Shown here in pieces: positions 1,452-1,852 of a DNA stretch of 8,795 bases (position 1 is its first letter; each line of letters opens with the position of its first letter). Origin of the DNA: a virus (Duplodnaviria; Heunggongvirae; Uroviricota; Caudoviricetes); the IMG/VR virus record IMGVR_UViG_2526164665_000039; one strand, given 5' to 3'. Both the position numbers and the translations under genes were made by a program. The notes beneath the pieces are model-generated. The model made no database searches. It had not been told where the DNA came from and saw only the letters and a list, made by a program, of their open reading frames with translations.

Positions 1452-1500
1452 GATCATAAAATGATCATTTTATTGACTTTTTATACAGTGAAGGTAGGAT
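1452..1500 (+). promoter_or_regulatory. Candidate sigma70 promoter preceded by a GATC-containing palindrome
   Basis: TTGACT (1473-1478), 16-bp spacer, TAGGAT (1495-1500). The 15-bp palindrome GATCATAAAATGATC (1452-1466) lies just upstream and holds two more Dam sites. Confidence 0.25.
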
Positions 1501-1550
1501 CGCGCGTATATGTAGTATGTTTCAAATCAACAGGATACTACATAAAGGGA

Positions 1551-1578
1551 GGTCCAGATAGTTACAGCTATCTGGACC
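1551..1578. repeat. Perfect 11-bp inverted repeat with 6-nt spacer in the leader of the zinc-ribbon gene
   Basis: GGTCCAGATAG ttacag CTATCTGGACC. An SD-like AAGGGAGG overlaps the left arm with no start codon after it. No U-tract follows, so it is not a classical terminator. Confidence 0.45.
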
Positions 1579-1681
1579 TGGAACAAATTCGCATCAATGC
1601 TTTACTTCGAGCTCGTGTCGTATCCTATGATATTCCCCGGTCTCCTGTAAAGCAGAGATGCATAAAAAGGAGATCTTTATC

Positions 1682-1852
1682 ATGGATAAAGAGCCTGTTT
1701 GCCCTGCCTGTAAGACTCCCTTACAGCTCATCTATCGCCGTTCTCGATCTCAAAATGGCAAGACATACAAACCCCAAAATGCGTCCTGTTTCAGGATGCT
1801 GATATGTCCTGCCTGTTCTCCCCGGAGGGAAAGTACACAAAACGTGCATTAA
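1682..1852 (+). CDS. Small zinc-ribbon protein (56 aa), function unknown
   Basis: ATG at 1682 lies 7 nt after AAGGAG. Product MDKEPVCPACKTPL...CFRMLICPACS carries paired CPxC motifs. It is convergent with the minus-strand small genes, and a hairpin follows the stop. Confidence 0.45.
   Translation: MDKEPVCPACKTPLQLIYRRSRSQNGKTYKPQNASCFRMLICPACSPRRESTQNVH

Follow-up and report, generated by a model that had tools for sequence, protein, structure and literature searches.

Among the described systems closest to the locus reported here is the control of mom in phage Mu, in which Com (PF10122, Zn_ribbon_Com), a small basic zinc ribbon with four cysteines, has as its target an mRNA whose start codon is occluded by a hairpin, the translation-inhibition structure. 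Long structured leaders and occluded starts are also typical of type I toxin mRNAs such as hok, zorO and tisB. In this article, we analyse an 8,795-nucleotide (nt) stretch of DNA (IMG/VR record IMGVR_UViG_2526164665_000039, hereafter the window), the right end of a Mu-like Escherichia coli prophage whose closest genome is that of strain 2010C-3347 (NZ_CP034806, 99.9% identity over 8.5 kb), and focus on a zinc-ribbon open reading frame (ORF), termed ZR, which is the sole plus-strand gene between mom/com (389-1280) and the DUF826/DUF1378/esterase/invertase block (1891-5196). The most likely overall reading, to which we assign a probability of roughly 0.6, is that positions 1473-1881 constitute a self-contained accessory ('moron'-type) unit, composed of a sigma-70 promoter, a folded leader of ~174 nt, ZR and a terminator hairpin, with post-transcriptional control exerted by the leader. 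The unit itself is established by comparison among 48 related loci (from E. coli genomes, IMG/VR, metagenomes and Salmonella assemblies), and its gating function is what we infer from that comparison. The DNA of the locus is present in 217 of 5426 complete E. coli genomes. The components of the unit are as follows.

1473-1500, plus strand: sigma-70-type promoter TTGACT-16-TAGGAT (TTGACT at 1473-1478, TAGGAT at 1495-1500), a predicted motif with conservation
1508-1681, plus strand: 5′ leader of ~174 nt from a predicted start, with four hairpins in the plus-strand RNA
1509-1544, plus strand: hairpin 1 (TATGTAGTAT / ATACTACATA) at the extreme 5′ end of the RNA, its stem conserved and its loop variable between species
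1550-1579, plus strand: hairpin 2, here allele A (AGGTCCAGATAG-TTACAG-CTATCTGGACCT), a perfect stem
1580-1590, plus strand: variable A-rich spacer that changes together with hairpin 2
1591-1661, plus strand: hairpin 3 (GCAUCAAUGCUUUAC ... GUAAAGCAGAGAUGC), a long composite helix with apical UAUC-CUAU-GAUA
1668-1672, plus strand: Shine-Dalgarno (SD) sequence AGGAG, 9 nt before the ATG, within the invariant AAAAAGGAGATCTTTAT
1674-1692, plus strand: hairpin 4 (UCUUUAUC-AUG-GAUAAAGA), an 8-bp stem closed by the start codon as a 3-nt loop and directly preceded by the SD
1682-1852, plus strand: ZR gene (ATG 1682, TAA 1852) for a basic four-cysteine zinc ribbon of 56 amino acids (aa), with CPAC at residues 7-10 and 42-45 and a conserved GKTY[KR]P motif
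1862-1881, no strand: hairpin CCGGCAGG-GAAA-CCTGCCGG between the convergent stops of ZR and DUF826, within an extended imperfect palindrome (1850-1893)

The resemblance to Com extends to the same right-end region of a Mu-type phage and to a start codon hidden in a hairpin, as in the hairpin 4 region of the ZR leader. There are clear distinctions, however: ZR (protein sequence MDKEPVCPACKTPLQLIYRRSRSQNGKTYKPQNASCFRMLICPACSPRRESTQNVH) has no PF10122 match, whereas the window's real Com scores 46.1 bits (cut-off 22.9; E 3.3e-12); the two cysteine knuckles are 31 residues apart in ZR and 16 in the window's Com; and ZR is monocistronic and divergent from com-mom, whereas Com lies upstream of and overlaps mom in one operon. 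With type I toxin-antitoxin and antisense-controlled leaders (hok/sok, zorO/orzO, copA/copT of R1), the locus shares a small ORF, a hairpin leader of ~170 nt, a start region within a hairpin, a candidate internal antisense promoter and discrete hairpin alleles. It differs in that ZR is hydrophilic and basic rather than the small hydrophobic, membrane-active peptide that defines type I toxins, and in that the antisense RNA is hypothetical here. The lambdoid nut sites (a conserved boxA with a phage-specific boxB) and the put RNAs of HK022 offer a further parallel, being promoter-proximal RNAs in which conserved blocks flank a hairpin of kept structure and differing sequence. Unlike them, the ZR locus has no N-like partner co-varying with hairpin 2 (ZR is nearly constant, apart from Q32K, S51N and, in some allele C copies, C7Y), and it carries a putative terminator immediately after ZR. 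As in prophage morons, the ZR unit has its own predicted promoter, a candidate terminator (a classic stem followed by T5 in Salmonella; a GC-rich GAAA hairpin without a clean U tract in the window), and a position and presence that vary in the right-end cargo region of otherwise collinear Mu-like prophages. It is set apart from them by its unusually long 5′ leader, which is more conserved than the gene and common to two unrelated ORFs.

Promoter and leader RNA

The first-pass annotation of this DNA, made from the letters alone, had proposed the promoter-like sequence TTGACT-16-TAGGAT, and its position proves to be conserved. The promoter scan alone performs at chance (2 sites found versus 3.3 expected), and the support comes from relatives. 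The Salmonella counterpart is TTGACT-16-TAAGAT, with 8 of the 16 spacer positions changed relative to E. coli, and the region upstream of the -35 element shows 57% identity between the two species and aligns poorly except for the mom-promoter block. Elements of the L034/L040 type carry an unrelated and better promoter, TTGACG-16-TATAAT, in the same place and at an equal distance from hairpin 1. Hexamers that are kept while the spacer is scrambled form the pattern expected of a working promoter, which argues for the putative promoter, and its position would place the RNA start at ~1508, immediately before hairpin 1. Between the -10 element and this predicted start lies a GC-rich discriminator, CGCGCG (1501-1506), which is conserved in Salmonella; its resemblance to those of stringently controlled promoters suggests sensitivity to growth rate or to guanosine tetraphosphate (ppGpp).

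A long structured leader had likewise been noted, and the ~174-nt segment is indeed both structured and conserved. The 194-nt leader region has a minimum free energy of -67.3 kcal/mol (z = -6.1 versus shuffles, with z of about -6 on either strand), and the RNAalifold consensus contains four hairpins with 96% of cells paired. The strand is decided by wobble pairs: 22 G.U cells, including an invariant U.G, exist on the plus strand and would all become A.C mismatches if the minus strand were the RNA, so the structure is assigned to plus-strand RNA. E. coli and Salmonella share 79% identity in the leader, compared with 60% in the coding sequence, and the part containing hairpins 3 and 4 reaches 89% over ~100 nt, while the synonymous sites of ZR are saturated; the leader must therefore be under strong constraint at the nucleotide level. 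On this comparative evidence, the leader is a plus-strand RNA structure under stronger nucleotide constraint than the ZR protein. Its most sequence-conserved part is hairpin 3, which includes the invariant GGUCUCCUGUAAAGCAG, and in hairpin 4 a C-to-U change in Salmonella preserves the pair as U.G. For hairpins 1, 3 and 4 the support consists of stability, conservation and wobble pairs.

The leader would thus far be best understood as controlling expression after transcription. Hairpin 1 may cap and stabilise the 5′ end of the RNA, a role that fits its occurrence only where the RNA starts there: its 5′ arm is found in the three promoter-bearing versions and is missing from promoterless copies downstream of other genes. 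Hairpin 4, by keeping the AUG in a 3-nt loop beside the SD, would limit or gate initiation, and the conserved hairpin 3 may be where a factor or an alternative fold acts. An Rfam 15 scan of the window revealed no family for the leader, the only match at E <= 1 being unrelated and sub-threshold (212-356), and no further copies of the leader occur elsewhere in the loci compared.

Two other readings of the hairpin 3 region and its surroundings were considered. A switch pairing the anti-SD GGUCUCCU (1638-1645) with AGGAGAUC (1668-1675) was not adopted: forcing it in the window costs ~20 kcal/mol, and L032, with its damaged hairpin 3, is alone in preferring this fold. Such pairing may nevertheless occur as a kinetic or induced state. 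The invariant CTCCTGTAAAGC resembles a half-site of the element's inversion sites (~11 of 15 positions), and a role as Gin crossover site was rejected because the inverted partner is missing and the block is equally conserved in Salmonella elements that have no invertase.

The ZR gene and the annotated pseudogene

In RefSeq, the Prokaryotic Genome Annotation Pipeline (PGAP) labels 1395-1852 'frameshifted', as the pseudogene of a 154-aa protein, both in the source genome and in further ones. Taken at face value, the locus would be a decayed gene that is intact in O157:H7, and the 'promoter' and 'leader' would be its coding sequence. The upstream part of this annotation corresponds to the following ORF.

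1395-1802, plus strand: 135-aa ORF, the first part of the RefSeq 'frameshifted hypothetical protein' (1395-1852); not a gene

O157:H7 does have an intact 154-aa ORF with the zinc ribbon as its C-terminus (WP_115801860, 205 cluster members), relative to which the window is one G short (ATGGAT-AAAGA versus ATGGATGAAAGA). However, when ORF integrity was compared in the first 26 loci and the window, the long ORF was uninterrupted only in the O157 type and was broken by three independent lesions, namely a 1-nt deletion at about codon 11 (leaving 14 aa), a stop codon within one allele of the variable patch (56 aa) and the -G shift (135 or 137 aa). Its N-terminal part shows no coding signature within E. 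coli (6 synonymous versus 16 non-synonymous changes, P = 0.36), and among 1.84 billion representative proteins it matches only one repetitive protein of 671 aa and pieces of this very locus. In the Salmonella outgroup, the state is -G, the gene is a standalone one of 53 aa, and the sequence near 1395 cannot be aligned.

The short frame behaves differently. The first-pass annotation had made its case depend on the ORF being maintained in related prophages, and ZR is intact in 20 of the 21 full-length copies carrying the segment (the exception, L003, has a 2-nt deletion), with a ratio of non-synonymous to synonymous divergence (dN/dS) of 0.17-0.25. Its start ATG is in frame in both the -G (MDKEP...) and +G (MKEP...) forms, giving proteins of 55/56 aa. 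Within E. coli, the ZR frame has accumulated 7 synonymous and 5 non-synonymous changes, where 22% synonymous would be expected (P = 0.007). Between E. coli and Salmonella, the proportions of synonymous and non-synonymous differences (pS and pN) are 0.72 and 0.32 (dN/dS ~0.17), the two Salmonella types L029 and L034 give a dN/dS of 0.25, and in the two off-frames pS and pN are about equal.

Comparison of these sequences identifies the short ZR ORF, rather than the RefSeq 154-aa ORF, as the selected coding unit. The 154-aa ORF was accordingly discarded as a real gene on the grounds of its independent lesions and missing coding signature, and with its reading already contradicted in this way, a decayed 154-aa gene is very improbable. 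Because the Salmonella outgroup holds the -G state, the O157 '+G' ORF is the derived form: by this comparison the +G allele fuses an unselected upstream frame to ZR, whose start is thereby displaced to a second ATG 13 nt away from the SD, and also distorts hairpin 4. The annotation error is systematic, in that the ancestral functional state is labelled a 'frameshifted pseudogene' in many E. coli genomes and the derived O157 fusion is treated as intact. All the motifs listed in the first-pass annotation were located in place, including the plus-strand 56-aa CPxC...CPxC gene opposed to its surroundings, which is the only plus-strand gene from com to DUF826, and that description of the locus is more accurate than the one in RefSeq.

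Probable terminator and modularity of the unit

The GAAA-loop hairpin that had been described as separating ZR from the convergent cassette was found at 1862-1881 and is, judging from its sequence and placement, probably a bidirectional terminator. In Salmonella, ZR is directly followed by a terminator of classic form, CTCCAGCC-TTAT-TGGCTGGAG-TTTTT. The position of the cassette varies among elements: in L029 it adjoins com and is followed by three small genes; in the L039 type it comes after those three genes, without a promoter, and is thus three genes away from com; elsewhere it is directly convergent with an esterase or a DUF1353 gene. The three-gene module encodes proteins of ~100, 81-85 and 122 aa without family assignment (6362-7274 in L029, after ZR; 326-1252 in L039, before ZR), the third of which has a weak match to the defence candidate PD-T4-7 (E 0.0025), and in L035-type elements a 51-aa relative of the module's second gene precedes the leader.

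The leader is also not exclusive to ZR. In E. coli elements of the L005, L045 and L046 types, an unrelated plus-strand ORF of 68 aa (MDKLTTDPKLQAARIAADITIAAM...) is joined to the same promoter and hairpins 1-3. This ORF (3388-3594 in L005; also in L045, L046, L012, L020, L023 and L028) is not annotated in RefSeq and is under purifying selection in frame 0 only (pS 0.218, pN 0.025, dN/dS ~0.11), so that a selected gene has been overlooked altogether in the annotation of sister elements. A convergent 66-aa gene overlaps the 3′ end of the 68-aa ORF, and neither of the two has a family match. The varied neighbours, together with a leader shared with the 68-aa ORF, indicate that the leader is a portable platform and that ZR has no fixed link with com-mom or the DUF826 cassette. 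The locus would thus represent a portable expression platform in the anti-restriction/cargo end of E. coli and Salmonella Mu-like prophages, including Sp18 of enterohaemorrhagic E. coli (EHEC) O157, and establishes a small-protein family and a structured leader RNA, neither of them described before.

The same modularity could mean that the leader is itself the functional product, either an RNA that modifies polymerase in cis, as HK022 put does, or a trans-acting or sponge RNA, with the small ORFs as interchangeable passengers. Neither ORF is as well conserved as the leader, which serves two unrelated frames, and hairpins 2 and 3 are kept in every arrangement. However, purifying selection acts on both ORFs, and hairpin 4 with the SD block is tied to the translation of ZR. 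Rfam has no match for the leader, and no allele-matched target is found elsewhere in the prophage, so we regard this explanation as quite improbable.

The preferred reading, an accessory gene gated by its leader, has several points to answer. Covariation in hairpins 1, 3 and 4 is weak (0.130 versus 0.102 +/- 0.013, a score reached by 17 of 500 shuffles), because most pairs never vary, and the conservation of these hairpins could consequently stem from bound protein, or from a minus-strand promoter, instead of RNA folding. In L032 and L034, part of the middle helix of hairpin 3 is disrupted, with its 3′ strand still invariant there. The E. coli GAAA hairpin is GC-rich, lacks a clean U tract and is not flagged by the terminator scan, and the AlphaFold2 (AF2) model of ZR is only moderately confident (mean predicted local distance difference test score, pLDDT, 69.8). 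ZR is damaged in some lineages (C7Y in four otherwise intact copies, the 2-nt deletion in L003 and a 1-nt deletion in L032) and is therefore dispensable. Finally, no paper or experimental data on the ZR locus were found in the searchable literature; a 2026 paper on HnrS names Sp18 solely for its excision in a mutant. All of these weigh against the reading, and current understanding is unchanged until expression and a phenotype are shown.

Hairpin 2, a hypervariable inverted repeat

The perfect inverted repeat noticed earlier within the leader is present, at 12 bp (1550-1561/1568-1579, with a 6-nt loop) rather than the 11 bp first given for 1551-1578; the orphan SD-like sequence said to overlap it, GGGAGG, is also there, although it is followed by no start codon and varies between alleles. 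Across all loci, eight alleles of hairpin 2 were distinguished, all with a 6-nt loop and with folding energies from -12.8 to -22.2 kcal/mol. Besides allele A of the window, they are as follows.

Allele B: ACCCAGCATAG-CTGGAA-CTATGCTGGGT, perfect stem
Allele D: GACCCGGTAG-GTGGAA-CTACCGGGTC, perfect stem
Allele E: GCCCGGCAG-TGCGAC-CTGCCGGGC, perfect stem
Allele F: GACCCAGTAG-TGCTAC-CTACTGGGTC, perfect stem
Alleles C, G and H: one bulge each

Among E. coli copies whose flanks are 95-99% identical, the ~45-nt patch comprising hairpin 2 and its 3′ spacer differs at about half of its positions, in the form of discrete alleles. In a loop-anchored alignment, 7 of 10 pairs have changed on both sides, and covariation amounts to 0.496 against 0.211 +/- 0.046 in shuffles (0 of 500 reach it), with all slid registers at or below 0.158. 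Comparative analysis thus identifies hairpin 2 as a selected hairpin in which pairing is kept while the sequence turns over and recombines. Its turnover exceeds that of a free neighbour: the loop of hairpin 1, which looks unconstrained between species, has hardly changed in these E. coli copies. Two tandem hairpin 2 modules occur in L033-L039 and L041-L044, and L045 and L046 carry reciprocal hybrids (a B stem with a C spacer, then a C-like stem with a B spacer), which shows unequal crossing-over between alleles at the conserved flanks. Hairpin 2 is, in this respect, a compact natural system in which to ask why an RNA stem diversifies faster than neutral neighbouring sequence.

Four roles may be envisaged for hairpin 2. 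It could serve the plus-strand RNA as a generic structural spacer or stabiliser, confer specificity on an antisense pair, terminate transcription on the minus strand, or form part of an RNA that is the product itself. ZR itself is unlikely to read its sequence, because the protein does not co-vary with the hairpin allele: ZR of allele A differs from B and C copies by two residues (Q32K and S51N), and B and C are the same apart from C7Y in some C copies. In two complete prophages searched for allele-matched targets elsewhere, none was found for allele B; two allele A 12-mers in tail genes were rejected as trans targets and taken as chance matches because they are identical in the allele-B prophage.

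The antisense role would require a second promoter, for which there is one candidate.

1622-1651, minus strand: promoter-like TTTACA-18-TAGGAT inside hairpin 3, with conserved hexamers that coincide with structural elements of the plus-strand RNA

From this site (1651-1622), a minus-strand RNA of ~70 nt could end at hairpin 2 and pair with the ZR leader, forming a cis-antisense pair similar to those of type I toxin-antitoxin or copy-control systems, with hairpin 2 and its spacer varying fast as determinants of pairing specificity between co-resident elements. The scan detects this site, in which 4-9 of 18 spacer positions change and the hexamers never do; yet the hexamers coincide with plus-strand structure, so their conservation does not discriminate between the two. 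Hairpin 2 is flagged as terminator-like on the minus strand, where the U tract is poor and set back by 3-4 nt (CCCTTTAT). Five of the eight alleles are perfect Watson-Crick stems without G.U and would pair equally on both strands, whereas the second-copy modules have U.G pairs that exist on the plus strand only. The ~50% divergence of alleles inside nearly identical flanks, the invariance of the hairpin 3 3′ strand even where its partner has changed, and the long structured leader with its occluded start all fit an antisense pair; the hydrophilic, basic ZR is unlike type I toxins, and the minus-strand RNA is hypothetical. On balance, we consider such a pair unlikely.

A related proposal, which we likewise hold to be doubtful, is that diversifying selection acts on hairpin 2 and its spacer as a module for allele-specific recognition, the reader being some factor or an antisense RNA from the internal minus-strand promoter. 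If true, each Mu-like prophage would control only its own copy of the cassette, amounting to an RNA-level 'immunity type' for an accessory gene, and unequal crossing-over between alleles would create new specificities.

Alternatively, hairpin 2 could be an intrinsic terminator of the minus strand that, together with the 1862-1881 hairpin, insulates the toxic com-mom from read-through of the upstream late or cargo genes, its turnover being terminator drift. Terminator stems typically retain structure over sequence, and hairpin 2 has, besides the minus-strand flag, a GC-rich stem base. Mom expression is cytotoxic and controlled at many levels (PMC3378877). The weak U tract speaks against termination, drift fails to explain ~50% divergence within such similar flanks when the hairpin 1 loop is nearly unchanged in the same copies, and hairpin 2 moves with ZR when the cassette leaves com and is sometimes duplicated in tandem. 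This makes insulation by hairpin 2 an improbable explanation, and leader-mediated gating of an accessory gene is retained as the preferred one.

The ZR protein family and Dam sites at its promoter

The ZR family is small, with 28 clusters among 5.8 billion proteins, all of this locus, and 10 matches among the 1.84 billion representatives. One match from this exhaustive HMMER search is a true, diverged homologue: a Salmonella protein of 53 aa, encoded as a standalone ORF, that phmmer scores at 43% identity and that shares the ZR layout, MDKE...CPxC...GKTY[KR]P...CPxCSP. Salmonella ZR is common (one variant occurs on 511 contigs), always has 52-53 aa, and is syntenic, lying in Mu-like prophages at the same position and divergent from com. 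The family is absent from two species-representative genome scans and seems, from these searches, to be confined to Mu-like elements of E. coli and Salmonella. Across the family, 18 residues are invariant; three of the four cysteines are among them, and the fourth is nearly so. ZR contains 10 Lys/Arg and 3 Asp/Glu (net charge ~+7) and no hydrophobic stretch; its AF2 model is a two-stranded zinc ribbon (strands 15-20 and 36-41), and the two CxxC knuckles flanking a beta hairpin or sheet that define generic zinc ribbons are present in both sequence and model. In a Foldseek search of the PDB, this model retrieved generic zinc ribbons, none significant, and comparisons with Pfam, PHROGs, PADLOC, NCBIfam and PDB sequences gave nothing above threshold, the sub-threshold matches being Trm112p (best in Pfam, 18.2 bits, cut-off 22; E 0.0023) and the YgiT finger (E 0.04). 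Given its net charge, ZR is most likely a dose-sensitive accessory protein that would bind nucleic acid or an enzyme.

The first-pass annotation had gone further, viewing ZR as a possible Com-like RNA-binding regulator of com-mom, of the convergent cassette or of both, with a promoter that may be Dam-sensitive; a DNA-binding version of this role was weighed here too. The likeness to Com did not hold: the Ogr/Delta, TraR/DksA and Com-like families named as candidates gave no match at E <= 0.1 in Pfam, PHROGs or NCBIfam, and BLASTP against the window's Com aligns just 13 residues at one CPxC knuckle. A separate TraR/DksA gene is present elsewhere in the prophage. ZR is, admittedly, a basic zinc ribbon on the strand opposite to com and ~400 nt away, and is divergent from com in E. 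coli and several Salmonella elements. Nevertheless, the convergent neighbour varies (DUF826, esterase, DUF1353), three genes separate the cassette from com in L039-type elements, ZR is unchanged whether mom or a C5 methyltransferase comes after com, and an unrelated ORF replaces ZR in elements that retain com-mom. Differing neighbours, a relocated cassette and a leader that also drives the 68-aa ORF render neighbour-specific regulation unlikely, and the idea that ZR regulates one or both neighbours was not borne out.

The Dam-related part of that proposal fared better in some respects. The palindrome placed at the upstream edge of the promoter is present.

1452-1466, no strand: palindrome GATCATAAAATGATC, upstream of the -35 element

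It is not conserved as a palindrome, as Salmonella keeps only the promoter-proximal GATC (1463-1466) and lacks the distal one (1452). The retained site sits 7 nt upstream of -35, and another GATC, missed in the first pass, overlaps the -10 element (1498-1501, TAGGATC); both are kept in Salmonella L029. GATC sites thus lie within or next to core promoter elements, as in Dam-controlled promoters of the IS10 pIN and Mu Pmom type. Over the whole window, GATC occurs about half as often as expected (15 sites versus 31.6 +/- 5.2), and 7 of these 15 sites fall within 1328-1749, the 420-bp com-ZR control region, which makes up 4.8% of the window (binomial P ~3e-6, our own estimate). Five of the seven clustered sites (1328, 1341, 1463, 1498 and 1672) are kept in Salmonella. 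The -10 GATC is absent from two of five promoter variants, the L008/L016 and L034 types, which counts, with the unconserved palindrome, against ZR as a Dam-sensitive regulator of its neighbours. In Mu, mom is controlled by Dam/OxyR, C and Fis and has a divergent promoter, momP2 (PMC3378877), a precedent favouring that role. Taking both sides together, a regulator of the neighbours is a rather unlikely role for ZR, and a self-contained, leader-gated unit remains the preferred reading, for which a methylation-sensitive ZR promoter is plausible from the placement of these sites. Nearby, in the presumptive mom promoter region, a palindrome (ATCGATCGAcAAAAACGATCGAT, 1325-1348) conserved between E. 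coli and Salmonella contains two GATCs (1328 and 1341) around an A/T run and probably accounts for the Dam sensitivity of mom in phages of this group.

Other features of the prophage right end

The genes surrounding the ZR unit are all on the minus strand.

389-1126, minus strand: mom
1080-1280, minus strand: com
1891-2136, minus strand: DUF826 gene
2172-2354, minus strand: DUF1378 gene
Between the DUF1378 gene and the invertase, minus strand: SASA/DUF6645 esterase gene
4636-5196, minus strand: Gin-type invertase, followed by the invertible tail-fibre segment and baseplate genes

Compared with NZ_CP034806, where the SASA/DUF6645 esterase gene is a single coding sequence of 2040 nt, the window has four single-base deletions (2495, 2563, 2912 and 2918) that split it into two ORFs, reflecting either true decay or assembly error. 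Inverted repeats of 179 nt (75% complementary; 5259-5437 and 6516-6694) flank the invertible tail-fibre segment beside the invertase and contain crossover-like sites, TTTCCCGTAAACCGACGTT at 6675 and TATCCCGTAAACCGAGGTT at 5278 (reverse complement). Just beyond mom, at 270-345, three copies of TTTGATAC(C/T) spaced by ~22-35 nt are probably Mu-type transposase binding sites of the prophage right end; a sub-threshold Rfam match, Atu_C9 (E 0.22), covers this stretch and is probably spurious. Lastly, com is constant among elements (compared in L006, L008, L029, L035-L038 and L040) while the gene after it swaps, being mom in some and a C5 cytosine methyltransferase in others, so that a modification gene is exchanged behind an unchanged translational activator.

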